Below are positions 14,605 through 40,280 of a DNA stretch of 48,658 bases, in pieces. The stretch is from an uncultured Acetobacteraceae bacterium (GTDB taxonomy: Bacteria > Pseudomonadota > Alphaproteobacteria > Acetobacterales > Acetobacteraceae). The stretch covers positions 1 through 48,658 of the forward strand of contig CAXSEG010000002.1 of NCBI GenBank assembly GCA_964235545.1, in the 5' to 3' direction. The notes below the pieces were generated by a model that saw nothing but the letters and a program-made list of their open reading frames with translations, ran no database searches and was not told the origin of the DNA. The position numbers and the translations under genes were made by a program. Numbering within the stretch: the stretch's first letter is position 1; each line of letters begins with the position of its first letter.

Positions 14605-14609
14605 CACTG

Positions 14610-14724: not shown

Positions 14725-15006
14725 ATGACCGAGGCCAGCAACGTCGTCCCGTTCCCACGCCAGCTTCGCGCGATGCCGACCTCGCCTGCGCCCGACGCGC
14801 CGGTTGCCGCCGAACCGCAACCAGCGGTCGATCATGACGGTCGGCTGTATCCCTTGCATGACCTGCTCCGCGGCCTCACGCCGGAGGAGCTACCGACGGT
14901 GGACGCGTCGGCGCCGCGGTCGGGGCAGGAAGCCTGGGACCCAGTCGTCCGGAACTGGCCCGCGCTGGCTGCGGAGATCATCGCGAGCGTGCCGGAGGCC
15001 CGGTAG
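14725..15006 (+). CDS. Hypothetical protein upstream of SRAP
   Basis: MTEASNVVPFPR..., 93 aa, ends 4 nt before the SRAP ATG. Confidence 0.6.
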   Translation: MTEASNVVPFPRQLRAMPTSPAPDAPVAAEPQPAVDHDGRLYPLHDLLRGLTPEELPTVDASAPRSGQEAWDPVVRNWPALAAEIIASVPEAR

Positions 15007-15010
15007 CCGC

Positions 15011-15723: not shown

Positions 15724-15759
15724 CATCTACGCGCAACACCGCACGCCCCGTGCCGACCG

Positions 15760-16440
15760 AATGGCTCGTTGGTGCAGATGGCGCCTGGTCGAAGGTCCGG
15801 CCGCTGCTGTCGGACCCGAAGCCCGAGCATCTCGGCACAACGTTCATCGAGACCTATCCGCACGACCTCGATGAGCGGCACCAAGCGGCGGCCGAAGCGG
15901 TCGGCGGAGGCGCAATGTTCGCGCTTTACCAAGAAAGGGAATTGTGGCGCATCGTGAGGCGGGGAGCGTTCAACCGTATGTCGAGCTAAACCGCTCCGCC
16001 GAGTGGATCGCCAGCATCGACTTCACCGACACCTCGGCCGCGGCCGCTCGGATTGCGGCGGATTTCGACGGGTGGGCCCCCGCGCTGACCGCGCTGATCA
16101 CCGACGGCAAGACCGCGCCGAGCCGGCGCATGATCTACGCGCTCCAGGACAGACGCCGATGGGACCGCGTGCCCGGGGTGACGCTCCTCGGTGATGCCGC
16201 GCACCTGATGTCGCCGTCCGGCGAGAAGCGAATTTGGCGATGTTCAACGGCGCCGAACTCGGCCGCACGATTGACGCGCACCTCGACGACATTGAGGCGG
16301 CACTCACCGCCTACGAAGAGGCAATGTTCCCCCGCAGCGAGTTGGAAGCCGTAGACGCGCACCTGATCCTGGGCTCTGCCTCGACGACCGTGCACCGTTC
16401 GGACTCATCGACTTCTTCACCGGCGCGATCGGCGGGGTGA
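15760..16440 (+). pseudogene. FAD-dependent monooxygenase (TetX-like family) remnant, 5'-truncated and multiply frameshifted
   Basis: LVGADGAWSKVRPLL, VTLLGDAAHLM and NLAMFNGAEL...YEEAMFPRS lie in different frames. The N-terminal GxGxxG is absent. Confidence 0.8.
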
Positions 16441-16591
16441 GGGCCGCTGACGCTATTCACCGATGAGGCTGTGTGACTAGCGCGGTCGAACGGCCGCTTC
16501 CCATTTGTCGGCATTCGAAATCTGCCGGACCGCAATCCACTCTCCACTCGCAAACGGGAGGGACACCCTCCCGTCGACGACGGAGGGGTGC

Positions 16592-16918
16592 ATGGACAGA
16601 AACCAGGCCAGCAGGGTCGGTGGCGAGGCTGGACAGGCCGAGATCATCGTCGAGATACTGGCCAGGCTTGAAGAGCAGGGTCGCCAGACGTTGGAGCTGG
16701 TCCGGTCGCTGGTCACGATCCTGATGCCGAAAGAGGGCGGCCGGGAAGGACCGTCGCTCGAAGACCTGATCCGAGTGCTGATTACACAGCAGCGCGAGAC
16801 CATCACCCTTGCCAAGGCGATGCAAGAGGACCTGCATCGTCAGGGCGAAACCCTGCCGCTGGCCGTGGCCGAAGCCGTCGTGGAGCAAATCCGCCATTCG
16901 GGGGCCGCCCGGCAGTGA
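16592..16918 (+). CDS. Small helical protein coupled to the relaxase (possible relaxosome accessory)
   Basis: GGAGGGG RBS, ATG 16592, and a TGATG overlap with the relaxase start. Confidence 0.7.
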   Translation: MDRNQASRVGGEAGQAEIIVEILARLEEQGRQTLELVRSLVTILMPKEGGREGPSLEDLIRVLITQQRETITLAKAMQEDLHRQGETLPLAVAEAVVEQIRHSGAARQ

Positions 16919-19900
16919 TGAACTTCCGCAAGATCGCGGCCGCCTCCAAGGGCAAGCTGCTGCTGCGGTACTTCACGGAGAACACGCCAGAACCGATCCA
17001 TGAGCCCGGGGTAGACGCCGCCGGGCGGCAACTCGACTCTGGGGGACGGCTGACCGCCTACTACACCGGCCGCGACAGCCGGGCGACCTGGCGGACCGAC
17101 ATGCCGGCCGCGATCGCCAGAGCGGCAGGCATCGACGCCCTGCGTATGCCACGGGACGAGGCCATGGCCCGTCTTTTCGAGGGCCGCCGGGCCGATACCG
17201 GCGAGGCCTGGTCGAAGCACCACCGCAAGCTGAGCGGTTTCGACATGGTGTTCTCGCCCCACAAATCGGTCACGCTTGCAGCGGAGTTCGCGGCCACCCC
17301 AGCGGAGAGCGCCGCCATCTGGAACGCCATGGACCGTGCCAACGACCGCGCCATGCGGCACGTCGCCCAAATCCTTGGCTGGGCCAGGAAGGGGGCGGGT
17401 GGCGAGGACGGGGCCGACCCGGGGGCGGTCGGCTGGATCAGCTTCCGCCACCACGCCGCCAGACCGACGCTGCATGTGCAGGATGGCGCTAGCGGGCAGA
17501 CCTACCTGATCGACGCGCCAATCGCGGGCGACCCACACGCGCATATCCACAATTTCCTCCTGAACCTTGTCGTCACCGAGGATGGCAGGGTCGGGTCGCT
17601 CGACACACGGGCGCTGACCGATCCGCGGGTCAAGGAGTTCGGCGCCTACTTCCAGGCCGTGCTGGCGGACGAACTGCGCCGCCTCGGCGCCGAGATCGGC
17701 TACGATGCCGGCAAGCAGGCCGTGGTGCTCACGGCCATTCCGGAACACGTAAGCAAGGTGTTCAGCAAGCGCGACAAGCAAATCCTGCGCAGCGCCCGGA
17801 CTTTTGCCGAGACACAGGGCTTGGTCTGGAACGACCTCTCGGCCGAGCACAAGCTGCAGATCGTCGAGGAGGCCAGCGCCGAAGGCCGCCTGGGCAAGAT
17901 GAAGGCAGACGAGCGGCGCATCTGGCGGGAGCAGGCCAAGGCACTGGACTGGAACCACCGGACTGTGGCGGACACCGTTGAGCACGAGAAGCTGAGCGAT
18001 GCAGAGCGATTCGACAGGGCGTATGAGTTCGCCGCCAAGGAACTGGCCCATGAGTTCCACACCGCGGCCGTGCTCAGCCACGAGAAGCTGGCCATGTATG
18101 CCGCGCGCGGCCTGATCGGGACCGGTATCGCCGGCGGATCCGACGACATCAAGCGGGTCGTCGCTTTGCTGGAGGAGCGCGGGATCCGGCTCAAGGGCGA
18201 GCAGGTGGCGCTGGTCGTGGGCGTGTTCGATGGACAAGTCCGGGCCACCAACACCGCGCAGATCCGCATCGAGGAGAAGCTGGCGGCAACGGTCCGGGCG
18301 ACAGCACGTGACCGGACCGGAGCGCTGCCGGTTCAGGTTCTGCGGCAGGCAATCGCGGCCTCCGGGATCGACTTTACCGCCGGGCAACGCGCTGCGATCA
18401 ACGCGATGGGTTTGGGCGGAGCGCTCACCTTGCTGACGGGCGTCGCAGGAGCGGGTAAGACGACGCTGTTGCAGCCCCTGGTCTCGGCATGGCAGACCGA
18501 CACGCGGTTTGACCAGGGCGGGCGGGAGGTCATCGGTGCGGCGACTGCGTGGCGCCAGGCCGACGCGCTCAAAGATGCCGGCATCGGCCGCACCTATGCC
18601 TTGCACCCATTGCTCAAGATGATCGAGGCCGGTGAATTCAAGACGAGCCGGAACACGGTGCTGGTGCTGGACGAGGTGAGCCAGATCGGGCCACGGCCGA
18701 TGTTGAAATTGCTGGAGCTGCAAGCGCGCACCGGCATGACGGTCAAGATGTTGGGTGACCGGGAGCAGGCCCAAGCGATCGAGGCTGGCGACACGATCGA
18801 GCTGCTGCACCGCTCGCTTCCCCCGGAGGCGCGGCCTGGGTTGCTCACCACCGTGCGCCAGACGACGGAGCGAGGCCGGGAGATCGCCGGCCTGTTCCGG
18901 GAGGGACAGGCGGCCAAGGCTCTCGAGATGAAGCGGGAGGATGGCACCGCGCGTATGGTGGGCGGCGACCGCGACCAGGTCGTGAGCGCCATCGCCGACC
19001 TCTACCTTGAGCGCCGGGACGCCCTGGTCGCTTCGGGCAGCAAGCGCGGGGTCAGCGTGACGGCGCCGACGAACGACGACGCGGCAGAAATCAGCCAGGC
19101 AATCCGGCGCAGGCTGAAGGAGCGCGGCGAGATCGGCGCCGACGAGGTGGTCTATCGCGCGATCGACCAGCGCGGGCAGACCTACGATCTGGCGATCGCG
19201 GCGGGCGACCGGCTGCGGCTGTTCCGGCGAACGTGGGGCATGGCCGACGGCGAGCGCGTGCAAGTCGGGAACAACGGCGACGTCGTGGAGGTAATGGCCC
19301 GCACGGACGCCGGGTTGCGCCTTCGAAGCAAGGATGGTGGCGTAGCCGAGGTGGAGTGGCGGCGGCTGGCCGACGATGCCACCAACCGGTTGATGCTGGG
19401 TTACGGTCATGCCCTGACCATCGACGCTGCCCAGGGCATCACCTCGGACGAGCACATCAATGCGCTGCCAAGGGGCACGTCCGGCGTCACCTCCTTTACG
19501 AGCTACGTGGCCGAGAGCCGCAGCCGAGGCACGACTTGGACGGTGATTTCCGAGGGGGCCGTGTACGAGTCGGAACGGCGGCGGCAGGCGCTGGGAGACA
19601 TCACGCCGATCACCGCCGGTGATCTTTGGCGGCGGGCGGCCGAGGACATGTCGGACAAGCGCTATAAGATGCTTGGGATCGACCTGCTCCACGCTGTCCG
19701 CCAAGATCGTGAGCAGGCGACCGATGCCTTCATCGCGTGCCACCGGGCCATGGAAACCGCGGCAATGGACCGGCCGGAGGCCGGCCATGATGCCGTCAAG
19801 CGCTTCCGCGCCGCGGCGGTCAATGAGAGTCTCGGCCGGCATCTGGCCGGGCTCGACCATGCGCTTCAGGAAAACGCGGCCCTGCTTCGCGACGCCGTAC

Positions 19901-20028
19901 GCGCCCGCGAGACCGCCGAACACCTGCGCGCGTTGCGCGTCGAGGCTGCGGCCGCGAAGCGCGGCATCGATGCTACGGCCAAGGCCCAGCCCCGGCCATT
20001 CCCCCCTTCGGCCGGCCTCGGTCCATGA
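16918..20028 (+). CDS. MOBF relaxase-helicase (TrwC/TraI-like)
   Basis: N-terminal tyrosines (RYF, AYY), FDMVFSPHKSV, HUH motif DPHAHIH, and a RecD-like helicase with GVAGAGKT, VLDE, GDREQ, AQGIT and YVAESR. Confidence 0.93.
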   Translation: MNFRKIAAASKGKLLLRYFTENTPEPIHEPGVDAAGRQLDSGGRLTAYYTGRDSRATWRTDMPAAIARAAGIDALRMPRDEAMARLFEGRRADTGEAWSKHHRKLSGFDMVFSPHKSVTLAAEFAATPAESAAIWNAMDRANDRAMRHVAQILGWARKGAGGEDGADPGAVGWISFRHHAARPTLHVQDGASGQTYLIDAPIAGDPHAHIHNFLLNLVVTEDGRVGSLDTRALTDPRVKEFGAYFQAVLADELRRLGAEIGYDAGKQAVVLTAIPEHVSKVFSKRDKQILRSARTFAETQGLVWNDLSAEHKLQIVEEASAEGRLGKMKADERRIWREQAKALDWNHRTVADTVEHEKLSDAERFDRAYEFAAKELAHEFHTAAVLSHEKLAMYAARGLIGTGIAGGSDDIKRVVALLEERGIRLKGEQVALVVGVFDGQVRATNTAQIRIEEKLAATVRATARDRTGALPVQVLRQAIAASGIDFTAGQRAAINAMGLGGALTLLTGVAGAGKTTLLQPLVSAWQTDTRFDQGGREVIGAATAWRQADALKDAGIGRTYALHPLLKMIEAGEFKTSRNTVLVLDEVSQIGPRPMLKLLELQARTGMTVKMLGDREQAQAIEAGDTIELLHRSLPPEARPGLLTTVRQTTERGREIAGLFREGQAAKALEMKREDGTARMVGGDRDQVVSAIADLYLERRDALVASGSKRGVSVTAPTNDDAAEISQAIRRRLKERGEIGADEVVYRAIDQRGQTYDLAIAAGDRLRLFRRTWGMADGERVQVGNNGDVVEVMARTDAGLRLRSKDGGVAEVEWRRLADDATNRLMLGYGHALTIDAAQGITSDEHINALPRGTSGVTSFTSYVAESRSRGTTWTVISEGAVYESERRRQALGDITPITAGDLWRRAAEDMSDKRYKMLGIDLLHAVRQDREQATDAFIACHRAMETAAMDRPEAGHDAVKRFRAAAVNESLGRHLAGLDHALQENAALLRDAVRARETAEHLRALRVEAAAAKRGIDATAKAQPRPFPPSAGLGP

Positions 20029-22554: not shown

Positions 22555-24900
22555 CTAAGCTGCCCGCTTGAGCGCTGCACGCGCCGTGATCGCTTCGACC
22601 CGATTCGTGACGGCGGCGAGATGGGCCTGAAACGTCACAAGCGTCATCGCCGGCGGCTCTACAGGCACGATGGCGTCCAGAGCCTCATCCCGGTCGCCCA
22701 AGATCGAGAGCGCAATGCCGCGGACGTCGTGCTGCGGCGCGCCCGCGAGCGCTTCGATAGCCTCGATCCGGTGGCGCACCCGAACGTCGACCGGCTCGTT
22801 CGGGTGTGCCGCCGTGTCGGGCCCGGCGAACACGGCCTTGCTGGCCGCTTGCAGCATCGGCGTCACGCTCGACACCGGCATGCCATCCGCCGGAGGAAGC
22901 GGTCGGGCGGGAAGGTCGCATTCTGGCACCTTCCCGACGCTCGCGAGGGCGGCCTGAGCGCAGCCGCGGGGGTCGGCGCCGCCGATTGCTGCGTCGGTGA
23001 AACGCTCGATCAGGGCAGCCAAGACGGGTGATTGCTCCTCAGATCCGCCTTCCCCCAGCTTGCCGCCCTCGATCGTCCGGACCATCCGCGCCAGGTGATC
23101 GACGCGGGCGCGCACCGCGCCGGCATCGGGGGGCAGCAGCATCACGGTGCGGCCCAGCCGCTTCGGGCCGGCATCGCTCACGGAGGCATGGAACACCTTG
23201 GCGTAGATGCGGCGGCCGCCGAACAGGATGATTGCCTCGCCCTCGATGAGGTTGGTGAGGTCCTGCCAGTCCACCCGGTAGACGGTCCGGATTTCGGCAC
23301 TGCGCGCCTCGCGGTACAGCCCGTCGTTGGCTCCCTGGTATGACGTGACCTGCGTTACGTTTGTCTGGCCCGCGGTCTTCTCGAGCCACTCGCGGGTGCG
23401 GCCGGCTTCCTGCTGACGCATGGCGATGGTCAAGTTCGCGTTGCCGAGCAGGGAAGCCGTTTTCTCGCCGAGCCGCGCCCAGATACCCGACACCTCCTGG
23501 AAGCCCAGCATGAAGCTGATGTTGAGGCCGCGGCCCATAGCCAGCATGCGGTCGAGGCCGGACGTTGCGTAGTAGGCCATCTCGTCCAGCACGATCGGAA
23601 ATGGCGCCGGACCCATGCCGGGCTTGTCCTCCACCGAGTAGTCACCTTCCAGGGAGATGCCGAGCAGCTGCGCCATCATGCCGCGCAGCGACGCCACGAC
23701 CAGCTTGCCGAGAGCGGCCAGGGTCGCGTCCGAGTTCTCCAGTGCCGGCAGGTTGACGACCAGGATGCGGCGATTGAGCACGACGTCGCGCATGTCGATG
23801 TCGCCGTTGGGCACTTTGAAGATGTGGCCGAGGCTTACGCCGAGTTGGGTGAAGATCGGCGTGAAGTACATCTGCAGGAAGCCATGTTGCTTGCTCGGCT
23901 CGTCGCCTTTCTGCTTATCGAGCGGCATCGATGGATCGTAGCCGGGCAGCTCACCCAGGTAGGAGCGCAGCGGCGAGATGATCTCTTCCGGGATCTCGCC
24001 GCCGACGTCGATGTCGGTGGTCTCGCCCGTCTCGGTGTTGCGGATGACGGCGATCTTCTCCATCGCCATCTTCCATATCCAGTTGAGCGGGATCGCGTCC
24101 CGGATTACCTCGACGTTGAGCGAGATGGCCTTATGGTCCCGCAACCAGACCAGCACGGGCGCCATGGTCCCGATCAGCGCCACGGCGCGCTCGCGGAACA
24201 CGCCGTTGGAGTCGCCCGCGGCCTGCTCGCCCAATTGCGAGGCGAGGATTTCACGCAGGGCGTCGGCGTTGCCGGTCGCGAACACGTTCCAGGTGTTGCT
24301 GTCCTTGAGACCGGAGGCAACCATGAAGTTGATCACCCGCACGTCGTCCTCGCGGCCGAAGCGGCGGGCCATTGCCAAAACCTTGGCGTAAACGTCACGC
24401 TGCGCCTTGCCGTCGACCAGCACGAAGCCGGAGCCTTGCGCGAGGGCATTTTCCAGCAGGCTCAGGATGGTCGTGGTCTTGCCCGCACCTGTCGTGCCGG
24501 GAATCGTCATGTGCTGGCGGAGGTCGTCAGCCGTGACCCATATCTCGTGCCCCTGGAGGTCCCAGCCGATGATCCAACCGCTTTCGGCCTTCTTGGCTTT
24601 GCGGGTGCCAGGGTCGGGATTGCCATAATCCAGCGTGGCAGCGCTTTCCGGGAGCCGGATCGGCAGCAGCACACGCCGGGTCAACACCCAGGCGGCATAG
24701 AACACGGACGCCGGCAGCGTCAGGTCGAGGACGGCCGGGAAAAGGAACGTGCCCGTCGCGGCAGCGGCCAGCACAACGCCCGACGCCGAACTGCGTAGCG
24801 CCTCGGACAGCCGGGTGGTGAAGGGCCGGATATCCCTGAGAGCCTGGGCGCCGCTGCGCTCGTACTGGTCCTGCGGACCGACGATCTGGCGCTGGATCAT
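22555..24900 (-). CDS. dotL: Type IVB coupling protein DotL/IcmO (TrbC-like)
   Basis: N-terminal TM segments, HMTIPGTTGAGKT, VDGK, RRILVVNLPALE, IVLDE and a long C-terminal extension. Start at ATG 24900. Confidence 0.9.
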   Translation of the reverse strand: MIQRQIVGPQDQYERSGAQALRDIRPFTTRLSEALRSSASGVVLAAAATGTFLFPAVLDLTLPASVFYAAWVLTRRVLLPIRLPESAATLDYGNPDPGTRKAKKAESGWIIGWDLQGHEIWVTADDLRQHMTIPGTTGAGKTTTILSLLENALAQGSGFVLVDGKAQRDVYAKVLAMARRFGREDDVRVINFMVASGLKDSNTWNVFATGNADALREILASQLGEQAAGDSNGVFRERAVALIGTMAPVLVWLRDHKAISLNVEVIRDAIPLNWIWKMAMEKIAVIRNTETGETTDIDVGGEIPEEIISPLRSYLGELPGYDPSMPLDKQKGDEPSKQHGFLQMYFTPIFTQLGVSLGHIFKVPNGDIDMRDVVLNRRILVVNLPALENSDATLAALGKLVVASLRGMMAQLLGISLEGDYSVEDKPGMGPAPFPIVLDEMAYYATSGLDRMLAMGRGLNISFMLGFQEVSGIWARLGEKTASLLGNANLTIAMRQQEAGRTREWLEKTAGQTNVTQVTSYQGANDGLYREARSAEIRTVYRVDWQDLTNLIEGEAIILFGGRRIYAKVFHASVSDAGPKRLGRTVMLLPPDAGAVRARVDHLARMVRTIEGGKLGEGGSEEQSPVLAALIERFTDAAIGGADPRGCAQAALASVGKVPECDLPARPLPPADGMPVSSVTPMLQAASKAVFAGPDTAAHPNEPVDVRVRHRIEAIEALAGAPQHDVRGIALSILGDRDEALDAIVPVEPPAMTLVTFQAHLAAVTNRVEAITARAALKRAA

Positions 24901-24949: not shown

Positions 24950-25330
24950 TCACGCGAAGAGCCCTGCCAGGATCCGGCGCAGACCGAACAGCACGTAAAG
25001 GTGCTGGTTGGCTGGCTCCGGCGATGGCTGCATGAGGGTCGGGTTGGCTGGGTCATAGCCGGGGGTTTCGGCAAGATACCGCTTGAGCGCGGCCGTCAGC
25101 GCCTCGGGCATGCCGGCAAGGTCGATGTCGGACCCATCTGGATCGAGCGAAGGCAGCCGGCGCTCCTGCACGATCGCCGTGATCCCGCGCAGGCTGATGG
25201 CCTTTCGTGCATGCGCCGGGGTCGGCTTGAACCCTCTTGTTTGCTGCGCCCAGGCGAACACGGCCTGCAGGTCGCGCAGGAGGACGTCGCCACGCTCTCG
25301 GTGAATGTCGAAGACCGCTGTGGTGTCCAT
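24950..25330 (-). CDS. Small protein paralogous to the internal all-alpha domain of DotL
   Basis: LKRYLAETPGYDPANP...EPANQH aligns by eye with DotL LRSYLGELPGYDPSMP...EPSKQH. The RER and DID anchors also align. Confidence 0.75.
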   Translation of the reverse strand: MDTTAVFDIHRERGDVLLRDLQAVFAWAQQTRGFKPTPAHARKAISLRGITAIVQERRLPSLDPDGSDIDLAGMPEALTAALKRYLAETPGYDPANPTLMQPSPEPANQHLYVLFGLRRILAGLFA

Positions 25331-26518: not shown

Positions 26519-27688
26519 TCAAGAGTGCGTCTTCGACGGGCCGGCTCGCGAGGACGCTGCCCTACGCAGCGCGTCGAGAGCGCGCTCCACGTTCGGCTCG
26601 ATGACGGGTCCGCCTGCCAGGCGCTCATACGCCCAGTGGTCCCGGGCGCCGACGGCCTCCGCCCTGGGATTAGGGTGCATATAGCGGTCGAAGATTTCCG
26701 TCTCGAAGCCGAGCGAGTGCAGCGCATACCAGAGCGGCCGGTCCACCAGCTTGAGCCAGGCGAATTGCCCGGGCGCCAGCACGCCCGCCCGCGCCCGGGC
26801 AGCCGTCAGCAGACTCATCAGGGCGGTGTGCGTGTAGGCATGGCGGTTCATCGCGGCCAGGGCAGGAGCCGCTACGGGATAATCGACCAGCACGGCCTGC
26901 ACGTCGCGCGATACAGATGCTGGAAAACCGAGCGGCTTCTCAGGGCCTTCCCGGCTTGGGTCCCTGCCTGCAAGTGCCGCCGACACTTTGCCAAGCAGGT
27001 CGACGGCTTCGGCGCGGTGTTCGGCGAGATGGAGGGCGCAGATCGCGAACAGGCATCGGACCTGCGCACTCGCGCCGTCCAGCCCAGACCAGTGCGGGCC
27101 GAGCTGGCGCACAAGATGGGCGCGCGCCATCCTGGACGAAAAGGCCCCATGTTCATCGGTCGCGTAGCGGGCGACCCATTCGGCAGCCGTCAGCGCATAA
27201 TCGGCGGGCCGCGGGTCCTTAGGCGCTGGTGGCACCAGGCCGAGGCGGCGGCCCACAAACGCTGCCGTCGTCCTGAAGCTGGCGGCCTGCTCACGGGCTA
27301 GGCCATCGAAGTCGAAGGCACGGCGGAACCGTGCGGGAGCTGCGCGCGTCATGCACCATCCGGCGAGCCCGAGCATGAACAAGCCGGCCGGAATGCGGAA
27401 CAGCATTCCGACGTCGCGAGCAATGCCGTATAGGTCGCGCAGGCTGACCGCTACGGGATCGGCCCGCATCATCTGGCGGTCGGCCAGGTCGTAGCGGTCG
27501 GTGAAGTGCCGGGCGAAGGCGATTTCCCGGTGGAAGAGCTGCATCACCGCGCTGCTGATCGGGCCATGGTAGCTGTCCCAGAGCAGGTAGGCGCCGGCGC
27601 AGCTGCACGCGACGATGACGATGAGGTAGAAGCCGCCGTTATCGTCGCTGGATGCCCAGCTCGACCGGGAGTTGGATTGTGGGTGCAT
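26519..27688 (-). CDS. dotM: DotM/IcmP (TrbA-like) coupling-complex subunit
   Basis: Two N-terminal TMs, QLGPHW, HAYTHT...ARARAGVLAPGQFAWLKLVDRPLWYALHS and EAVGARDHW. Confidence 0.9.
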   Translation of the reverse strand: MHPQSNSRSSWASSDDNGGFYLIVIVACSCAGAYLLWDSYHGPISSAVMQLFHREIAFARHFTDRYDLADRQMMRADPVAVSLRDLYGIARDVGMLFRIPAGLFMLGLAGWCMTRAAPARFRRAFDFDGLAREQAASFRTTAAFVGRRLGLVPPAPKDPRPADYALTAAEWVARYATDEHGAFSSRMARAHLVRQLGPHWSGLDGASAQVRCLFAICALHLAEHRAEAVDLLGKVSAALAGRDPSREGPEKPLGFPASVSRDVQAVLVDYPVAAPALAAMNRHAYTHTALMSLLTAARARAGVLAPGQFAWLKLVDRPLWYALHSLGFETEIFDRYMHPNPRAEAVGARDHWAYERLAGGPVIEPNVERALDALRRAASSRAGPSKTHS

Positions 27689-27690
27689 GA

Positions 27691-28248
27691 TCAGTCGCCC
27701 GCCGTCACGATGGACGACCTTGGACGGCCGGGTAGGGCTGAGCGGGAGTCGGCCATCGTCGGGTGGTTGGCCTTGGCCTGCAACCGAAGAGCTTGGTCGA
27801 GCACGAGCCGCAGGTAGTGCGCCTTATGGTCCGGATCGTGGGAGTGGTAATAGCCGACCCCCTCCCAAAAATTACCGCGAGCCTCGTCCAGACCCTTGCG
27901 AAGTATCCACGATCCGGCCTCGACGTTGGCGCAGAAATTATCGCGAAGGGCGCGAGAGGTGGCGGACTGGGTGGCGCCCCAATGGGCGGCGATCTGCGGT
28001 ACCCAGATCTGGTTGACCTGCATCGGGCCGATGTCGACGGTGTTGTTGGTATTCTGGCTCACGGCGCCGAGCGACCCGCCCTCGACCCGCAGCAAGATCA
28101 CGATCACCGCCGGAGGGAAACGGTACGCTTCGGCCGCCGCGGTGATGCATCCGCGGATCGCGGCCAACCCCTCGGGGGTTTCGGCGGCGCGGGCATTGAT
28201 GGCCGCAGTCGAAAGCAACGCCGTAGCGGCCAAGAGCAGGCGTGTCAT
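27691..28248 (-). CDS. Lytic transglycosylase (SLT/TrbN-like)
   Basis: Signal peptide, catalytic VEGG, DIGPMQVN and VGYYHS motifs. Confidence 0.9.
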   Translation of the reverse strand: MTRLLLAATALLSTAAINARAAETPEGLAAIRGCITAAAEAYRFPPAVIVILLRVEGGSLGAVSQNTNNTVDIGPMQVNQIWVPQIAAHWGATQSATSRALRDNFCANVEAGSWILRKGLDEARGNFWEGVGYYHSHDPDHKAHYLRLVLDQALRLQAKANHPTMADSRSALPGRPRSSIVTAGD

Positions 28249-28679
28249 GGTGCGGGTCCCCGGTTGGCAGAGGGCGTCGGCGTGGCCTGGCGCTCGATGG
28301 TGTTGGTCGCCGCTTGCCAAAGGGCATTCAGGTCGTGGACCATGATGGCGCCGGGCCGCGCGACTTGCGCCGTGGCTTCCATGGTGGACAGCATGACGGT
28401 GCTGAAGGTGCCTTCCCGGATGGCGCGCAGCCGGTAGCCTAGCAGCGCCGCCGGATCGCGCACGATGTCCAGCGCGAAGCCCTTGCCGGTCGCCTCGCGC
28501 CAGACAGCCTCGCCTGCGACCACCAGCGCCGGGAGCAGGCCGTTCGGGGCCGCAGCGCTGGCCGGAGACACCGGTAGATCCTCGCCGGTAGCCCGGTCGC
28601 GGTAGATCACAGGCCGCCCCTCGCGGGTCAGCAACGCTTCCATGGCGCGGCCCACGGAGTCGACGCTGACGGCGCTCAT
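28245..28679 (-). CDS. icmS: IcmS-like adaptor protein
   Basis: GLLPAL...GKGF...ALLGYR matches remembered IcmS GLLPAI...GYGL...ALLGIR. It directly follows icmT with an ATGA overlap. Confidence 0.6.
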   Translation of the reverse strand: MSAVSVDSVGRAMEALLTREGRPVIYRDRATGEDLPVSPASAAAPNGLLPALVVAGEAVWREATGKGFALDIVRDPAALLGYRLRAIREGTFSTVMLSTMEATAQVARPGAIMVHDLNALWQAATNTIERQATPTPSANRGPAP

Positions 28680-28924
28680 GCCAGCCGACGCCGCTTCCAA
28701 GCCGGGACCGCGGTGCGCACCGATCCCACCAGAAACCGCCGCGCCAAGCGCATCATCGCCGGCAAGGTGAGCCCGAAGAACGAGATGACCGAGAAGAACA
28801 CCGTTCCCATCAGCGCGATGTAGAACGTCGCCCAGCTCCAATAGACCAGGAAGCAAAGGATCGGCAGGCAGGCCCGCGCGTCGAGCATGAACAAGCGAAC
28901 GGGTTGGGCGGTGTTGCGCCACAT
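28676..28924 (-). CDS. icmT: IcmT/TraK family inner-membrane protein
   Basis: MWRNTAQPVRLFMLDARA signature, 82 aa, hydrophobic core and basic tail. Confidence 0.9.
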   Translation of the reverse strand: MWRNTAQPVRLFMLDARACLPILCFLVYWSWATFYIALMGTVFFSVISFFGLTLPAMMRLARRFLVGSVRTAVPAWKRRRLA

Positions 28925-30117
28925 CAGCCGATATTCCTTTTCTGGTCGATCGCGACCTGTTCCGTGATCCTGCCCCCCGCCAACGCAAGGTCGATGGCGC
29001 GCGCATAGGATTGGCCCTGCTCAGCGACCGCGCGCCGTGTCAGTGCCGGCCATTCGCTCGGGTTGGTCTGTAGGAACTCGTCACGCAAAGTGCGGTCGAA
29101 GGCGAGGAACTCGCGCAGTGCCGTGCGCCTGCCGTCCACGGACGGGGCAAGGCGCTGGTTGATCACCAGCCGGAGCGACTGTGCGACGGCGGAGACCAGG
29201 TTGTCGCGCTCGTCCGAGGGGCACAGGCTGGCGATGCGCTGCATGGTGAGCGCCACGTCGTTGGCGTGGACCGTCGTGGTCAGCACATGGCCGGAGATCG
29301 CCGCCTGGATGGCGGCGCTCATGGTCTCGCTGTCGCGGCACTCGCCCACGATGATGTCGGTCGGCTCGCGCCGCATCGCGCCGCGCACGAACGCCGCAAA
29401 GGTCGGCAGGTCGCGCGGGATTTCGGTCTGGTTCATGGTCGAGTTCACGCCCCGCACGCGCTCCAGCAGGAACTCGACCGGGGCCGCGCCTTCCACGATG
29501 TTGTAGTGCCCGGCCGGGTCTTGCAGCTTGGCGACAGTCATGCCGGCGATCAGCGTGGATTTCCCGGAGCCAGTGCCGCCGGCGACGATGACCATGCCCT
29601 GATGTGGGCAATACGCGTCGAGGATGCCCGGCTCGACCAACTGCTCTGCCAAACAGGGGGGCATGTCGGCGATCGGCCGCAGCACGACGTTACCGCCTTC
29701 CCGCCGGGACGTGCGCGTCGGTGTCGCGTTCAGGCGGAACCGGAGCCGCGTGGAGCGATCGATGGAGATGGAGTAGGCGGTGTCGAAGTCGGTCCCGCTC
29801 TGCAGCCGGGCCATGCCCTCCGCACCGTAGAGGTGGTTCACGATCATCGAGAACTCGTGCTCGTCGAGCGAGGCCCGCGTTGCCCGGCGGTTACGGCCGT
29901 GAATGCCGACCCAGACCGGGTGGCCGGTCTGGAAGGCGACGCGGGAGGCCTTGGCACGAAAGGCCCAGACCAGCAAAGAGTCCAGGCCGGGCGCGCTCTT
30001 GCGCGGCTCCTGCACCCAGCGCACGCCCTCATCGGGCCAGGAGCCATCGACTTCGTCGCTGATCGCCACAGACCGTACGGGTAGGGTCAGGCCGTCAAGC
30101 ATCGTCTGTTCCGACAT
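28924..30117 (-). CDS. dotB: DotB/TraJ PilT-like ATPase
   Basis: GGTGSGKST, EGAAPVEF, IIVGECRD and GHVLTTTVHAN. Follows dotDC. Confidence 0.9.
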   Translation of the reverse strand: MSEQTMLDGLTLPVRSVAISDEVDGSWPDEGVRWVQEPRKSAPGLDSLLVWAFRAKASRVAFQTGHPVWVGIHGRNRRATRASLDEHEFSMIVNHLYGAEGMARLQSGTDFDTAYSISIDRSTRLRFRLNATPTRTSRREGGNVVLRPIADMPPCLAEQLVEPGILDAYCPHQGMVIVAGGTGSGKSTLIAGMTVAKLQDPAGHYNIVEGAAPVEFLLERVRGVNSTMNQTEIPRDLPTFAAFVRGAMRREPTDIIVGECRDSETMSAAIQAAISGHVLTTTVHANDVALTMQRIASLCPSDERDNLVSAVAQSLRLVINQRLAPSVDGRRTALREFLAFDRTLRDEFLQTNPSEWPALTRRAVAEQGQSYARAIDLALAGGRITEQVAIDQKRNIG

Positions 30118-30198: not shown

Positions 30199-31155
30199 TC
30201 ATCGCGGGCACCCGGCTCCAGGGCGCCAGCGCCGCGCGTTGCCCTGAAGGCCGGGTTGGTCGGTGATGCGGATTGTCTGATCGCCGACGTGCAGGCTATC
30301 CCGGCCGCCCTGCACGGCCTGGTTCTGGAACGCCACCTTGGGCTGTTCCACCAACCCGGCCCGCAGCAAGACGCGGTAGCGGGCCATGCCGACGATGTCG
30401 CGCTCGAGGCGGCTGAGATCGGACAGGTAGATCTCGACCGCCTGCTTCTCGCCCTGCGCCCAGCCTTCGGCCACCCATTTGTTCCAGTAGGCCACCTCCT
30501 GCTTGGTGCGCGGCAGCGCGCCGTCGGTGGGGCGCTGCGGCGCTGACCAACTTCGAACGAGGTAGGCACGCCAGTTTGGCGGTGTCGAGGACAGCTGCGC
30601 CTCGCGGGTGATCTGGTAGATGCACGAGGTTTCTCGGGCGACTTGGCCGCCGTCGCCTAGGGCGAACGCCATCTGCGCGGCCGACACGATCGGCGGCCGC
30701 ATCAAGGTCTGTCCGCTGCTCACCGGCAGTACGAGTGTGTGGAAGTCGTAGGCGCTGTCCAGTTGCGGCTGGTAGCGGCGCAGCATCTCGTTGAGGGCGA
30801 AAGATCGGCCTGCCAAACCGCCCTGAGCACCATACGTGAGGGCGGCGGTGCGCACCATGTCGGCGCGGCCCGGTTCCAATCCGTCACCCTTCTCGTCACC
30901 CGGGCGGGTCGCCTGCAGGGCCTCCAGCGACGGCGGCTGCGGCGTTCCGACCACAAGCGGATCGACTTGCGCGCCGGTGATCGGCTTGTTTAAGGGATTG
31001 GCCAGGTCGGGGACGTTCGCCTCCACCTGATCGGCCGTGGGGTCGGGCGGCACGCGGGTTGCGGTGAGAGCCGGACCCTCGGCCCGGGTTGGCGCAGCGC
31101 CTGCTAAACCGGCCAGCACCGTCGCCGCAGCGAGCAGCGCGCGAAGGCTAGGCAT
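30199..31155 (-). CDS. dotC: DotC/TraI family core protein
   Basis: ALTYGAQGGLA, LDSAYDF, PPNWRAYL, WNKWVAEGWAQG and RLERDIVGM. Confidence 0.9.
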   Translation of the reverse strand: MPSLRALLAAATVLAGLAGAAPTRAEGPALTATRVPPDPTADQVEANVPDLANPLNKPITGAQVDPLVVGTPQPPSLEALQATRPGDEKGDGLEPGRADMVRTAALTYGAQGGLAGRSFALNEMLRRYQPQLDSAYDFHTLVLPVSSGQTLMRPPIVSAAQMAFALGDGGQVARETSCIYQITREAQLSSTPPNWRAYLVRSWSAPQRPTDGALPRTKQEVAYWNKWVAEGWAQGEKQAVEIYLSDLSRLERDIVGMARYRVLLRAGLVEQPKVAFQNQAVQGGRDSLHVGDQTIRITDQPGLQGNARRWRPGAGCPR

Positions 31156-31612
31156 GATGGATCACCTGGACTTGGTGGTGGAACGGATCGACCTCGACGG
31201 TGGCGCGGGTACCCGCCTGATTGCCGAGTGCCTGGAAGACCCGGAAGACGGGGACGGAGCCGACCTGGACCGTGACCGGCACTGGATCCTGCGACGGCGG
31301 GCCGCTGGTATAGAACGTGTAGCCGATGCTCTGTGCGAGCTTGGCGACGCCTTGGTCGAGCGGGCCGGACCAGGTGAACGACACGGTGCGCTGCAGGTCC
31401 TCCGGCACCAGCGGCGTCACGACGCGTTCGGCGATTGGGGAGAGCTGACCGAGTTGGGCCATCTCGGCATCGACGTGCTGCATGCTCAGGCGCAGCGCCG
31501 CCTCCGGGTTGGGCATCCCGGCCGTCTCGACCGTCGTGGGGACCGGGACGGTGTTGGCGCAACCTGCGAGGAGCAGCGCCGCGAGAACGGCAGGTAGCAG
31601 GGGTGGCTGCAT
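31148..31612 (-). CDS. dotD: DotD/TraH lipoprotein
   Basis: Lipobox LAGC, SFTWSGP...LAQSIGY and LGNQAG. Confidence 0.88.
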   Translation of the reverse strand: MQPPLLPAVLAALLLAGCANTVPVPTTVETAGMPNPEAALRLSMQHVDAEMAQLGQLSPIAERVVTPLVPEDLQRTVSFTWSGPLDQGVAKLAQSIGYTFYTSGPPSQDPVPVTVQVGSVPVFRVFQALGNQAGTRATVEVDPFHHQVQVIHHA

Positions 31613-31890
31613 CACAACCGGCTCATCGACCAGCTGGCCGCAATCAGGGTCGGGCATGGATGTGAGAGTTCGTGCCAGTCTACCGAGTGTCCGCGCGACC
31701 GACGCGAGCTCAGCCACGCGCAGGGACCACGGGCACCTGTTGACCATCTAGCGGCCACTTTCCATGGCGGGAAGGACGGCCCCGGCAGAGCGGCCCCGAG
31801 TTGCATAGTGAGATGAGCCACGTGCGATCCCTCCGTCATGCACGGAGGCTACGAACGCGATTTGCAAACGGGCACACCCGCCGCCGCCGC

Positions 31891-32182: not shown

Positions 32183-35100
32183 TCACTCGGCCGCTATCGA
32201 GGTGTCCTCGTTGGTCGCGTCCTCGTGCGGGCGCAGGACCAAGCCGAGGCCATGGCCGCGCACCAGCTCGTCGGCAAGCTCGTCCACCACACCGGCCTCG
32301 ACGCGATCCGCCGCATCGCCCTTCTTGAGCCGCGCCTTGGTGCGGCGCTCGATCTCGTCCATGGCCGAGCCTTTCGGGAACACCTTGGAGAGCCGGCGCA
32401 GCCCCTCGCTGAAGCCGACCTTGGCGTAGAGCCGGTTGCGCAGGCTGGTGTCGCCCGGCGTGGTCGACAGCGCCCACAGCTCGATGGGGCCGAGCGAGTT
32501 GATCAGCATCTGCTCGTAACGCGCCTGTTCGGCCCGGAAGATCGCCAGGAACGGGGCGCCGTCGCGGTTGGGGCCGGTCAAGCGCATGCGCACCACCTTG
32601 GCGCTAGCGTCGGTCAACCCGAACCTCTCGATGACGGCCTCGCGCTCCTTTTGGTCGTCGGCGCCGAGCACGAACCGGCCGGTCGATTGTGAGACGATGC
32701 CGTCGCTGAAGTCGGCAAGGCGCTGGCTGGCAAAGCCGAGCTGCACGTTGTGCTTGCGACCCTCGCGCACGTCGCGCTCGGCTTGGGCGCAGATCAGCGG
32801 GCTGCCCTCGGTGCGGTGCCACTCGTCGTAGTCGATGCGCTTGACCGTCTCGTAGATCTCGGTGAAGCGCCGCGTGTGGTAGTCCAGCACACGCGCCGGC
32901 ACGTATTCCAGGTATTCAGGGTGCAGGAAGAAGTTGCGGGCTAGGATGTGCCGGGCCAGCAGGTACATCATCTCGGTCTGGCGCTGCGCGGAGGCCGACC
33001 CTTTGGGCGCCACGTACTGCAAGTCGAGGGCGATGATGCGGGCCGGACCGAAATCGAGTTGCGTCGGCGCGTTCAGCGTCGGGAAGCGGCGGATCATGTC
33101 CTCTATGTAGCGTTCGAAGATCTGCGAGACGGATTCGGAGGTTTCCTGGACCTTGATGTCCTCGAACGCGTCCCGCACCTGGTCCGTGCGCACGGCGCTG
33201 ATCAGGTCCTGGATGATCGGCACGGCATGGCGCTGGGCCATCTCGGCAAGGCGATATTCGCCGTGGTCGCACAGCGCGTTCACCACGTCGCGCCAGAACG
33301 GGCGGTCGGCATGCAGCTCGATGCCGTAGTGCTCGATCGCACGGTCCACCTCCGGCTCGGCGCCGCGCCGATAGTGTTTGGAGCCTTCGTCCGAGGCGCA
33401 CAGCCGGTAGGCCTCGTCGATCACCGCCTCGATCAGCTGCGACATGCCTTCGAACGGGCGCGAGCGGTCCGGCGGCGTGGTGGCGAGGGCAAGGAAGTTC
33501 TGGAGGAACACCCGCTCCAGCGGAAGCGGGTACTCGCAGCCGACCTGCAGGTCGAAGATGTTGAACTCGAAGCCGGGTGCGAACTGCAGCGACACGAAGA
33601 TCGCCTCATGCCGCCGCCTCGGGCCGAGCGCCTCCTGCATGAGCCGGACGAAGCCTTCCACCGACCGCCCGATATCCACCTTGCCGATCAGGGGCGGCTT
33701 GGCGCCCTTTGCGCCCACGGCGGCGGTGCTCAGGCAGAGGCCGATGTTGATCGTGTTGGCCAGCACCGATTTTCCGCTGCCAGGCGGGGCCACGAAGATA
33801 TCCACTACGAGGGGGCGCTTGCGTCCACCAGCCGGGTCATAGGGCCAGATGCCGCCATCGGGACGGCGGAACAGCACGCTGCCACTCTCCCAGGGCGAGG
33901 CGGTGCGGTTCCACGGCAGCATCGTCAGTGCGTCGCCGAGTAGTGCCAGGGCTGGATTGGCGGTCGAGGCAAGCGCCAGGCCGGGTGCGGTGCTCATCAC
34001 CGCCTCCAGCGGGTCGCCCACGACGGAAGTGGCCTTGGCGTTGCCCCAACCCTCGATCCGCTGGGACAGGATGGACATACGCCGGCGCAACTTGGCCGGC
34101 TCTTCGACGGGAGCCCAGGTTGCAAAGCTCGCCCGCAGCTTGACGCTGATGTGGTTCTCCTCGGCCGCCTCGCGCAGGAACTTGAAGGAGCGCCGCAGGT
34201 CGGCGTTGCCGGGGAACATCGCCAGGAACGACGCGCCCAAATCCTTGATCTGCATCGACCCCTTGCCGCCGCCTTCCATCACGATCGCAACGCGCCAAGG
34301 AATGCGGTCGAGGCCAAGCGTCGAGGACAGCTTGACAAAGGGCTGCGGGTCCTCGGGTCCGATGTTCATGTCGACGCAGGCAAAAGCGTGCTCACCGAAA
34401 TCCACGCGCTGACCGCCATGGGTCACGGCATCGGCATAGAACAGCTGGTCACGGATCGGCGGCCACAGCACGTGCTCGGCCTTTGCCTTGGTGACATCCT
34501 CCTCAGGTGCACGCGCCATCACCTTGTCGCCCGGCAGGATCGGCATCCAATCCGAGCCGGACATCTCACGATACATTGCCTCGCGCGAGACCTTGAGCGC
34601 CTCGTGCGGATCGAGGATGGCCGCCGAGACGTCGTGGGCGCGCAGGGCCGATAGCAGCCGGGAGGTGAAGGCGGAGTGACGTGCGGCCATCACCTCGCTG
34701 CGCAGGTAGAAGCGCTGCGTGTCGCCGATCGCACCGGCGGCGTTGGCGGCATACTCGGCTTTGAGCTGCTTGCGCTCTTCCTTGGTCAGCACCGACGTCT
34801 TGGTCCAGACGATGAAGTAGGCGGCCTCCCAGCGCATCAGTTTCGGCCATAGCCGGGCGCGTTCGTCGAGGATGTCGTCGAGGTGCAGCCCGCCCAGACG
34901 GGCGATCTCCCGGCAGGCCCGCAGGTTGAGGTTCTCGATCTCGACCAGGGCTGCATCTGGGTCGGAAATATACCAGCCGACGATGGCATGCCCGCGGGCG
35001 TCAAGCGCACCCGACAGGTCGAGGCGCATGGCTTCGGAGATCTGCGCGAAATCCTTTGCCTCACCCATGCGCTGCATCCCGTCCACACGAATCCAGGACT

Positions 35101-35224
35101 GGTAATGGCCGGCCTTGGTGATCAGCGCATCGCCGTGGGCAGTCTCGACCTCGCAGAAGGCGCCGAGCGGCTGCTTGAGGGCCAGCGACAAGGCGGCGAA
35201 GCCGCGGGCGATGGCGGCGAACAT
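32183..35224 (-). CDS. dotO: DotO/IcmB (TraU; VirB4-like) ATPase
   Basis: 1013 aa with APPGSGKS, NIFDLQVG, YDEWHR, REGRKHN and ELWALSTT. Confidence 0.92.
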   Translation of the reverse strand: MFAAIARGFAALSLALKQPLGAFCEVETAHGDALITKAGHYQSWIRVDGMQRMGEAKDFAQISEAMRLDLSGALDARGHAIVGWYISDPDAALVEIENLNLRACREIARLGGLHLDDILDERARLWPKLMRWEAAYFIVWTKTSVLTKEERKQLKAEYAANAAGAIGDTQRFYLRSEVMAARHSAFTSRLLSALRAHDVSAAILDPHEALKVSREAMYREMSGSDWMPILPGDKVMARAPEEDVTKAKAEHVLWPPIRDQLFYADAVTHGGQRVDFGEHAFACVDMNIGPEDPQPFVKLSSTLGLDRIPWRVAIVMEGGGKGSMQIKDLGASFLAMFPGNADLRRSFKFLREAAEENHISVKLRASFATWAPVEEPAKLRRRMSILSQRIEGWGNAKATSVVGDPLEAVMSTAPGLALASTANPALALLGDALTMLPWNRTASPWESGSVLFRRPDGGIWPYDPAGGRKRPLVVDIFVAPPGSGKSVLANTINIGLCLSTAAVGAKGAKPPLIGKVDIGRSVEGFVRLMQEALGPRRRHEAIFVSLQFAPGFEFNIFDLQVGCEYPLPLERVFLQNFLALATTPPDRSRPFEGMSQLIEAVIDEAYRLCASDEGSKHYRRGAEPEVDRAIEHYGIELHADRPFWRDVVNALCDHGEYRLAEMAQRHAVPIIQDLISAVRTDQVRDAFEDIKVQETSESVSQIFERYIEDMIRRFPTLNAPTQLDFGPARIIALDLQYVAPKGSASAQRQTEMMYLLARHILARNFFLHPEYLEYVPARVLDYHTRRFTEIYETVKRIDYDEWHRTEGSPLICAQAERDVREGRKHNVQLGFASQRLADFSDGIVSQSTGRFVLGADDQKEREAVIERFGLTDASAKVVRMRLTGPNRDGAPFLAIFRAEQARYEQMLINSLGPIELWALSTTPGDTSLRNRLYAKVGFSEGLRRLSKVFPKGSAMDEIERRTKARLKKGDAADRVEAGVVDELADELVRGHGLGLVLRPHEDATNEDTSIAAE

Positions 35225-35227: not shown

Positions 35228-35872
35228 CTATTCCTTCGGGTCGGCGGCGTTGGAGGCGTGTTGGGCCGTCTGCGCCCATGTATCGACGATGTCCGGATAG
35301 ACGTCCGCGCCGTCGTGGAAAAAACGGCCGAGCGGCAGCACGCGGAGGCTGCCCAGCAGGGCCGCTTGGTGAGTCCGGGCAATCGGGGAAAGGCGGTGCA
35401 GCGCGGCGGCGAGCTCGCTCGGTGCGCTCGTGCCGAGCCGCTCGGCTGCTTCATCGGATCGCGTGGCGAGGGCGCGACGCGCGTGATAGATCGAGCGCCG
35501 TGCCGGGGTGTCCTCGCGCAAGCCGGCGTCGTGCAGCAGGCTCTCACCAAAGGACCGCAACTGGACGTGGATCTCGCGCATCATCGTGTTCAGCGCCGCT
35601 TGACTGGTCTCGGGGAGCCAGACGAGCACGGCCTCCTCGTCGATGCGCGGGCGCTCCAAATGGCGAGCCAGGTGGCACAAGGGGCAAGCCGCAGCCGGTT
35701 GCCCAACCATTTTGGCGTCGAGCGCCGGGACGCCGCGGTCCGGAAAACACCATCGTCCAGAAGCGGCGCCGCAATAGAGGCACGGCACTGGTCCCGCCTC
35801 GCCCAGCAATACGAAGCAACTCGCGCACTCGTCACTATCATGCGCGGAAAGGGTGAGGCGGTGGAGCGGCAT
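35228..35872 (-). CDS. dotN: DotN/IcmJ-like Zn-binding coupling-complex subunit
   Basis: CLYC...ACPLCH...LVWLPETSQAALN. Immediately upstream of dotO, as icmJ is of icmB. Confidence 0.75.
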   Translation of the reverse strand: MPLHRLTLSAHDSDECASCFVLLGEAGPVPCLYCGAASGRWCFPDRGVPALDAKMVGQPAAACPLCHLARHLERPRIDEEAVLVWLPETSQAALNTMMREIHVQLRSFGESLLHDAGLREDTPARRSIYHARRALATRSDEAAERLGTSAPSELAAALHRLSPIARTHQAALLGSLRVLPLGRFFHDGADVYPDIVDTWAQTAQHASNAADPKE

Positions 35873-38958: not shown

Positions 38959-40275
38959 TTACTGCGCCGCGTGCGATGTGACGTTGGAAAGGAACATGAC
39001 CCCGACCGCGACATTGGCCTCGAGCGAAACGGTGGGGCCTTTCGGCGCCGCCTGGTTCAGCGTGGCCCCGGCCTGTGCAGCTGCCGTCCCTGCCGCGATG
39101 CCGAGCTGCTGCCGGATATTGAGGTTCGTGGCGGTGGTGGCGCCGCCCAAGGGACTGAGCACGGACACGGAGTTGGAGGTTGTGGCGATGGCTTGTCCAA
39201 GGCCTGCCACGAAGGCAGCGGCAGCCGGGAGGGCGAAACGCGTCAGGTAGTGCTGGTCCACGTCGGACGCGACGCCTGCCTCCATGGTATCCGGGGCGAT
39301 CACCAGCCCGTCCACGCCGAGGTTCTCTCCATCATGGATGACCGAACTGATGTGGATGACCAGCCGATCGTTCTGCTTGGCAAAGGTGCCGATCATGCGG
39401 TCTCCGGCGATCGGTCCGGTGTCGGCCTGCAGCACGACGGGGCTGCTGGCATCGGAGTTCACCGCAAGGATGGGATGCGCGTAGATGCCGCGGCCCGCCG
39501 GAACGAGGAGGTGTCCCTGGTCGGACCGGGTGGACACCGGCAGTGGCAGAGATGCGTCGCGCGTCCTGGCCGAGGTCGAGGGAGTCCGCTGCACGGGCGA
39601 AGCGTCGGTCGCGTCGCTATCGTGCTCCGGCGGCGGCATCACGACGTCGGTGCGCGGTGCACGACCGCCCCACTGGGCGAACAATTCCCGGATTTGCTGG
39701 TTATAGGCTTGCTGCGCTGCCTGCTGTGCCGCCGCATCGCCCTGCGACGGCGCTGCGACCGGGATGGGGCGGACCGGCTCGCTGACCGGCGGCGCGGCCG
39801 GCGGCGGAAGCGGCGCCGGAAAAGCGACACGGAGCGGCTCCGGCAGCGGATTGTACGGAGGACGGGCGATGGCGACCGGTTCGTGCCGGACCTGGGGCGG
39901 AGGGACGGCTTGTTCGACGTGCAGCGGCGGGGGATTGATCAGCTGGCTGGGACTCAGTGGAGGGGTATAGGACACCCCCCGCTGCATGGCGGCCTGCACC
40001 TGGCTATCGTTGGCCTGCTTGGCGAGCGCGTCCTGCTCGGGCGTGGTGTGAAGGCCGCCCGGCAACGGGTCGACAGCCTTCATCCGGGCATCGTGCGACA
40101 GCTCAGGAGCGGACTTGCCGGTGAACGATACGCCGACGGCAAGCCCCGCGACCCCAATGATGCCGCCTGCGATGATCATCAGCCGGCGTGGGCCGGCGGT
40201 GTTCGCTGCATTGAAGAATTGCCCGGACGGCATCCGGGGGATCAGGGTGCCGAGTTTGGCGAGCGCACCGGACAT
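38959..40275 (-). CDS. dotG: DotG/IcmE (TraO; VirB10-like)
   Basis: TM, Pro-rich linker, AVNSDASSPV, ASDVDQHY and VGVMFL. It is short and lacks the long Legionella repeat region. Confidence 0.85.
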   Translation of the reverse strand: MSGALAKLGTLIPRMPSGQFFNAANTAGPRRLMIIAGGIIGVAGLAVGVSFTGKSAPELSHDARMKAVDPLPGGLHTTPEQDALAKQANDSQVQAAMQRGVSYTPPLSPSQLINPPPLHVEQAVPPPQVRHEPVAIARPPYNPLPEPLRVAFPAPLPPPAAPPVSEPVRPIPVAAPSQGDAAAQQAAQQAYNQQIRELFAQWGGRAPRTDVVMPPPEHDSDATDASPVQRTPSTSARTRDASLPLPVSTRSDQGHLLVPAGRGIYAHPILAVNSDASSPVVLQADTGPIAGDRMIGTFAKQNDRLVIHISSVIHDGENLGVDGLVIAPDTMEAGVASDVDQHYLTRFALPAAAAFVAGLGQAIATTSNSVSVLSPLGGATTATNLNIRQQLGIAAGTAAAQAGATLNQAAPKGPTVSLEANVAVGVMFLSNVTSHAAQ

Positions 40276-40280
40276 GACGA

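Follow-up and report, generated by a model that had tools for sequence, protein, structure and literature searches.

An IcmS-like adaptor gene downstream of icmT in a relaxase-linked type IVB operon of an uncultured Acetobacteraceae bacterium

Type IVB secretion systems on plasmids are not in themselves new, because Dot/Icm-like clusters were reportedly listed on several alphaproteobacterial or relaxase-linked plasmids by Nagai and Kubori in 2011. In Legionella, the IcmS–IcmW pair (IcmSW) is described as binding and stabilising the C-terminal tail of the coupling ATPase DotL and as recruiting a subset of the substrates directly or via LvgA (available text of PMC9302130, PMC7251119, and PMC3441705). 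IcmS and IcmW were listed as gained in the last Legionellales ancestor in the available part of PMC8896642, where gained need not mean invented, and the missing DotL tail of the pOXA-48 TrbC was read as a divergence between DNA and effector transfer in that of PMC12365149. The view that IcmS is specific to effector-secreting systems, stated in a sequence-only reading of the DNA analysed here, agrees with both sources, and IcmS and the DotL tail have been used as markers separating effector-secreting from DNA-transferring type IVB systems. As far as the available text of each source goes, IcmS and IcmW were not found in pCTX-M3 (PMC6112013), icmS and icmW were reported absent from pVM82 with icmW present in Pseudomonas putida (PMC13664640), and icmW belongs to the P. 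putida kib cluster (PMC9519443). Besides, a Roseomonas protein has already been named IcmW by NCBI. No plasmid IcmS is named in the available text of PMC12857230, PMC10432156, PMC9519443, and PMC11338181, and the literature searched yielded no account of an IcmS from alphaproteobacterial or relaxase-linked plasmids; the supplements of PMC10432156 and PMC9519443 may name such genes. IcmW outside Legionellales is thus already annotated and known, and what is surprising in the locus described below is the missing IcmS partner and its link to a relaxase.

The window, i.e., the whole stretch of 48,658 bp that was analysed, is an entire contig with a type IVB operon, the genes of which were full-length compared to the complete Roseomonas plasmid L216. 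On the minus strand, the operon includes genes for DotM/IcmP (26519–27688; PF23127, 167 bits), a TrbN-like lytic transglycosylase (27691–28248; PF01464, with NF010463 below cut-off), IcmT/TraK (28676–28924; NF038220, 117 bits, cut-off 40), the DotB/TraJ ATPase (28924–30117; TIGR02524, E 1e-85, below cut-off), DotC/TraI (30199–31155; PF16932), and the DotD lipoprotein (31148–31747; PF16816). These are followed on the same strand by a gene for a 1013-aa protein (32183–35224), 62% to an ATP-binding protein encoded at the corresponding place in L216, which has no family match and would from its size and position be IcmB/DotO, by a conserved slot with a weak DotN/IcmJ-like match (35228–35872; NF038221, E 0.0097, far below cut-off), and by the core genes dotI, dotH, and dotG (38959–42025; PF11393 and PF12293, with NF033900 below cut-off; full-length compared to L216). 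On the plus strand, a TraW-like protein is encoded downstream of icmW (45630–46850; NF033888, E 3e-7, below cut-off), and the 5′ end of dotA/traY (48385–48657; 49% to DotA of L216) is cut by the contig end. An intact MobF relaxase-helicase of 1037 aa in one open frame (16915–20028, plus strand; NF041492, 146 bits, cut-off 100; PF08751) was found 2.5 kb beyond dotL and was 61% to the L216 relaxase over the full length. Type IVB genes, coupling protein and relaxase are thus present together on one element. No LvgA, IcmQ/R, DotU/IcmF or effector family was found among 32 window ORFs and 23 L216 proteins in scans that would miss divergent forms and novel effectors, IcmS itself having been missed in this way.

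The same assembly contains a second, more distant and partial type IVB operon copy on contigs C158 and C103, the IcmS-like protein of which is 40% identical. About 14 kb of cargo (2007–16500) lies between the relaxase and a gene at 1186–2007, a homologue of which adjoins the relaxase unit in L216; the cargo includes an error-prone DnaE2 (10790–14062) and a PHP-ATPase of the TrlF family, similar to the anti-phage protein Ppl (7868–10597).

Directly after icmT, positions 28245–28679 (minus strand) were found to contain one intact open frame of 144 aa, which includes the peptide that the sequence-only reading had quoted as IcmS-like. Its ATG overlaps the icmT stop by four bases (28676–28679), and at the other end its stop shares four bases with the ATG of the transglycosylase gene (28245–28248). 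At E 0.05 the protein had no match to a family of Pfam or NCBIfam, none of 53 family members matched an IcmS family at E 1, a PF12608 search over the own genome gave no match at the locus, the single sequence gave no match in the PDB, and the homologue P0004 gave no usable match in Atlas. Relatives were recognised among 389 of 643 candidates and, by profile search, among 631 of 7995; neither the best 120 of the 389 nor the best 120 of the 631 had a Pfam domain or an informative name. In 137 loci, many of them near-copies, icmT was directly upstream in 123 of the 125 loci with room, so that the icmT–icmS order pointed out in the first reading is widely kept, and the transglycosylase gene was directly downstream in 108 of 109. 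The IcmS-like gene was retained in almost all operon copies examined. It is a real and conserved gene.

The resemblance of the single sequence to IcmS is weak on its own (11 of 48 positions identical, pairwise E 6e-4), but profile and structure bear it out. An AlphaFold model built from 53 sequences showed a mean pLDDT of 88, which was low only in the last 14 residues. When this model was used in a Foldseek search, five matches at E 0.001 or better were obtained, and these best five rows were all IcmS chains of DotL–IcmS–IcmW structures (E 8e-6 to 4e-5, target TM about 0.8; next row E 0.22). By VIA-align, chain 5xnb_B, which is IcmS by its PDB name, was the sole one of 48,161 representatives with a Z of at least 5 (Z 15.0, rmsd 2.0, 109 of 114 residues, 17% identity; next Z 4.6). 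On profile level, a family alignment of 52 rows (A5), more diverse than alignments A1 and A2 and without any canonical IcmS, placed four IcmS sequences on top in the PDB (E 0.005–0.006; next 0.82), and the narrow profile A1 had no match there. Compared by hhalign with canonical IcmS, i.e., 31 PF12608-positive proteins gathered from genomes, A5 gave 87% (pairwise E 3.7e-6, 89 columns) and the narrower A2 gave 49%. With the family profile, 25 of the 31 canonical proteins scored above the best unrelated of 11,346 own-genome ORFs; the reverse search was weak, recovering 2 of 52 family members at E ≤ 0.02, with the window protein not among them. Thirteen alignment columns are conserved in both the family and canonical IcmS, and the common motif residues are P45, G47-L48-L49-P50, G65, G67, L80-G81, L97, and L117. 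The family does not reach the PF12608 gathering cut-off and is a new subfamily beyond the current PF12608 model. The suggestion that the unannotated gene after icmT looks like IcmS was borne out by frame, fold and profile, and we consider its product to be almost certainly a real, divergent IcmS.

Compared to IcmS of the Legionella and Coxiella Dot/Icm systems (PF12608; 5XNB, 5X1E, 5X90), the protein has the same fold, which spans about residues 5–120, and as in Legionella its gene directly follows icmT (cf. lpp0507–lpp0508 in the available text of PMC6761968), an IcmW partner and a DotL tail are present, and the interface is predicted to be the same. In contrast to Legionella IcmS, it has an insertion of about 13 residues, predicted to form a beta-hairpin near residues 26–38, and a variable, low-confidence C-terminal tail of about 30 extra residues. 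It also has no cysteine (canonical median 2) and is less acidic, with a pI of 6.6, or 5.8 without the tail, against medians of 5.4 for the family and 4.7 for canonical IcmS. Its gene is followed by the transglycosylase gene instead of icmR–icmQ, and the type is plasmid-borne and relaxase-linked, without an LvgA family match. The IncI/IncM MPF_I systems (R64, pCTX-M3, pOXA-48) are similar in the type IVB core, the DotL and DotM homologues and the presence of a relaxase on the element, and in both the window and pCTX-M3 the transglycosylase gene adjoins dotM; however, their relaxases are MOBP and not MobF, and the pOXA-48 TrbC has no DotL tail according to the available part of PMC12365149, whereas the window DotL has one.

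The putative partner is a 154-aa IcmW-like protein (44602–45066, plus strand), which narrowly clears the Pfam IcmW cut-off (PF23130, 28.7 bits, cut-off 27). Its profile ranked the PDB IcmW first (E 0.025), and the top two Foldseek rows of its model were IcmW chains (TM 0.66–0.69, E 0.03–0.06; next 1.8). The coupling ATPase DotL/IcmO (22555–24900, minus strand; 781 aa), recognised by alignment to Legionella DotL, has the C-terminal extension: residues 11–736 aligned with residues 7–736 of Legionella DotL in one collinear stretch including the tail (E 1.5e-103), and the tail was retained in 24 aligned family members. When the IcmS-like protein, the IcmW-like protein and the DotL tail were modelled together, as the sequence-only reading had suggested as a check, the score was 0.82 and the best of three controls scored 0.00; of the reference cases, 116 of 157 solved complexes and 2 of 215 mismatched pairs attained the score mark, a calibration that is only approximate for a three-chain job built on own alignments, and the pass may stem from likeness to the solved DotL–IcmS–IcmW structures. 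The runs agreed in at least 84% of the contacts, with partner pLDDT of at least 85. Contacts were predicted for residues 5–19, 59–66, and 91–104 of the IcmS-like protein, the IcmW C-terminal helices (125–150) and DotL residues at about 712–740; the IcmW surface corresponds to the two C-terminal helices described in the available text of PMC6761968, and the DotL segment lies within the 671–753 region described in that of PMC9302130. The invariant or near-invariant family residues W60, G65, L97, and E101 fall in the predicted interface, and swapping out IcmW lowered the score to 0.00. It is very likely that the IcmS-like protein belongs to an IcmSW–DotL complex.

Just upstream of dotL, a free-standing 126-aa protein is encoded (24950–25330, minus strand) that showed 31% identity to DotL residues 230–342 over 116 residues (pairwise E 4e-14). 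Separate copies of it were also found in loci L008, L025, L036, and L037. Possibly, a piece of the all-alpha region of DotL was duplicated to give this protein, which would act as a decoy or regulator.

The IcmS-like gene was found on 65 of 72,556 plasmids, from Acetobacter, Roseomonas, Komagataeibacter, Gluconobacter, Methylosinus, Methylocella, Kozakia, Bosea, and others, and it is sporadic in Acetobacteraceae (27 of 300 genomes, sometimes in several copies). Co-occurrence was counted in the 28 family-bearing genomes and in 20 taken from the 273 negative genomes. An IcmW-like gene was present in 17 of the 28 and in none of the 20, a close MobF relaxase (E ≤ 1e-90) in 20 and none, respectively, and any relaxase match at E 1e-10 in 23 and 3. 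These counts are descriptions and not tests, because the relatives are not independent. Three of the 11 genomes without a detected IcmW were inspected: at the icmW position, G633 and G487 had a diverged IcmW-like ORF (E 6e-5 and E 0.04, respectively), and the contig of G732 stops before this position. In G633:C2 (L201/L202) and G487:C2 (L204/L205), IcmW is shortened to about 115–128 aa and retains mainly the C-terminal helices predicted to bind IcmS.

Among the best 60 of the 65 plasmids with the IcmS-like gene, 45 were also among the best 60 of 97 plasmids with the relaxase, and on these 45 listed plasmids the two genes were within 20 kb of each other in 37 cases and within 31 kb in 42. Eight of the 15 remaining listed carriers were copies of one A. 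pasteurianus plasmid in which the region is broken by insertion sequences; for this reason a truncated DotL (676 aa) on the A. pasteurianus plasmid L032 was rejected as a co-loss with IcmW. By MOB-suite, 23 of the 65 plasmids were typed as non-mobilizable, though some of these carry an annotated mobF. Thus, one relaxase subfamily follows the type IVB system across genera and sits close by, and since the IcmS-like family travels with the MobF relaxase, we regard the element as likely to be conjugative.

A scan of 1331 ORFs from nine plasmid regions, picked by DotL or IcmS matches, revealed unannotated IcmS-like ORFs in six regions (Acidovorax, Methylibium, Bosea, Pseudomonas, Xanthomonas, and a second Gluconobacter type), which a joint IcmS profile matched at E 5e-14 to 3e-5 and none of which had a Pfam match. 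Among the 1331 ORFs, the Acidovorax protein was matched both by a profile of canonical sequences only (E 3.9e-8) and by one of the family only (E 3.2e-9). A Teredinibacter candidate was weak (E 0.007). No IcmS-like ORF was found in the Leaf58 region, in 150 of the 153 kb of pVM82, or in the Piscirickettsia region, where a canonical-profile match at E 0.0055 was not recovered in a later search. IcmW cleared the Pfam cut-off on Pseudomonas, Xanthomonas, Teredinibacter, and pVM82 plasmids. The transfer regions of R64 (48 kb) and pCTX-M3 (44 kb) showed no IcmS or IcmW match at E 1, and the idea of IncI TraL or a pCTX-M3 gene as a hidden IcmS thus found no support in these regions. The P. putida IsoF kib cluster and Xanthomonas pXCV183 are likewise non-Legionellales type IVB systems with icmW. 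From its description in the text available, kib is a chromosomal killing system, unlike the plasmid-type system of the window; pXCV183 has PF23130 above cut-off and an unannotated IcmS-like ORF, and it is typed MOBP with its DotL outside the alphaproteobacterial clade.

The IcmS-like ORFs of Acidovorax, Methylibium, Pseudomonas, and Xanthomonas (L223:19860–20372, L224:16212–16706, L225:15649–16026, and L226:15480–15845) lie two to three genes upstream of transglycosylase–dotM–dotL and not after icmT. In Bosea pANAM02, a 311-aa protein (L228:27091–28026) has the IcmS-like region as its C-terminal part, apparently fused to an N-terminal domain, and L228:9284–9769 occupies the icmW slot without a profile match. 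On NC_009705.1 (L235, pVM82-type), a hypothetical protein at 8462–8983, far from the main dot/icm cluster, clears the Pfam IcmW cut-off with 61.8 bits (local profile E 1e-7), although icmW was reported absent from this system (PMC13664640).

In a quick DotL tree (29 rows, one duplicate omitted, only two canonical-IcmS genomes, midpoint root), the alphaproteobacterial systems formed one group (100), which fell outside a group of the canonical-IcmS genomes, Piscirickettsia, pVM82, Methylibium, and Acidovorax (97); long branches set R64 and pCTX-M3 apart. The tree is compatible with an old origin of IcmS–IcmW inside the non-IncI branch, and it does not fix the order of events.

Taken as a whole, the reading that we prefer, with a probability of roughly 65%, is that a divergent IcmS and IcmW clasp the DotL tail in a plasmid type IVB system that conjugates via the linked MobF relaxase. 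In this mechanism, the modelled IcmS-like protein would pair with the IcmW of the element and clasp the C-terminal tail of the DotL ATPase; by analogy with the Legionella complex, the pair would keep the tail folded and may form a platform at which protein cargo docks and is passed to the ATPase in the course of mating, and the system likely conjugates DNA between environmental bacteria through the relaxase. Conjugation as such does not require the IcmS–IcmW pair, because mobilisation of RSF1010 in Legionella does not need IcmS (available text of PMC3441705) and the R64 and pCTX-M3 regions have no IcmS or IcmW match; the pair would be expected to affect the DNA strand itself less than the stability of the tail and the proteins that are co-transferred. 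No report of DNA transfer by this type IVB system was found in the literature search.

An unlikely alternative is that the same IcmSW–DotL complex belongs mainly to a protein translocator, aimed at bacteria, as in P. putida kib, or at fungal, algal, plant, or amoebal partners, and that the relaxase uses the system secondarily or not at all. This would agree with the available text of PMC7251119 and PMC9302130, in which the DotL tail and IcmSW had a role in recruiting effectors in every case tested, with the presence of icmW in the kib cluster in the text available for it, and with a related Xanthomonas plasmid system that secreted protein and, when tested in a preliminary way, gave no indication that the plasmid is transferred (available part of PMC10432156). 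However, one relaxase subfamily tracks the type IVB system across genera at close distance, and the scans of the window and L216 proteins, which miss novel effectors, gave no match to an effector, LvgA, IcmQ, DotU, or IcmF family. Slightly less probable still is that IcmSW on the DotL tail is the receptor of the MobF relaxosome, comparable to the TrwB tail and TrwA in R388, and essential for DNA transfer. Tails of coupling proteins do recruit the relaxosome via accessory proteins in R388 and F (available text of PMC12857230), and the retention of the IcmS-like gene in nearly all operon copies examined would fit such a role, but IcmS-like genes are also present on MOBP-typed plasmids of Acidovorax, Methylibium, and Xanthomonas, and the IcmS-independence of RSF1010 mobilisation by Dot/Icm argues in the same direction. 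An IcmS fold with a role apart from IcmW and DotL, or a mere vestige, could account for the 12–23% identity to canonical IcmS, the insertion and tail, and the carriers in which IcmW was undetected (11 of 28 genomes), but is improbable in view of the four conserved residues in the predicted interface, the collapse of the complex score when IcmW was replaced, and the lack of IcmW in all 20 genomes without the family.

If the preferred reading of a DotL-tail/IcmS/IcmW module on relaxase-linked plasmids is true, it would remove IcmS and the DotL tail as a marker separating effector secretion from DNA transfer, and claims of icmS or icmW absence that are based on BLAST or Pfam need rechecking. IcmS is likely older and more widespread than the host-infecting systems. 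A bolder proposal, which we put forward tentatively and hold to be rather doubtful, is that the IcmSW adaptor arose in conjugative plasmids as a general cargo-handing device, that it is concealed under the name “hypothetical protein” on type IVB plasmids of alpha-, beta-, and gammaproteobacteria, and that Legionellales inherited it ready-made, with the plasmids delivering unrecognised IcmSW-dependent proteins during mating. The relaxase-linked plasmids of the preferred reading come from acetic acid bacteria, from methanotrophs, and from alphaproteobacteria of soil or lichens. A plasmid IcmS, if true, would give “orphan” IcmW genes the partner that they lack, and would provide harmless, culturable hosts, such as the plasmid carriers Komagataeibacter xylinus, Methylosinus trichosporium OB3b, and Beijerinckia indica, for studying the function of the adaptor prior to host infection.
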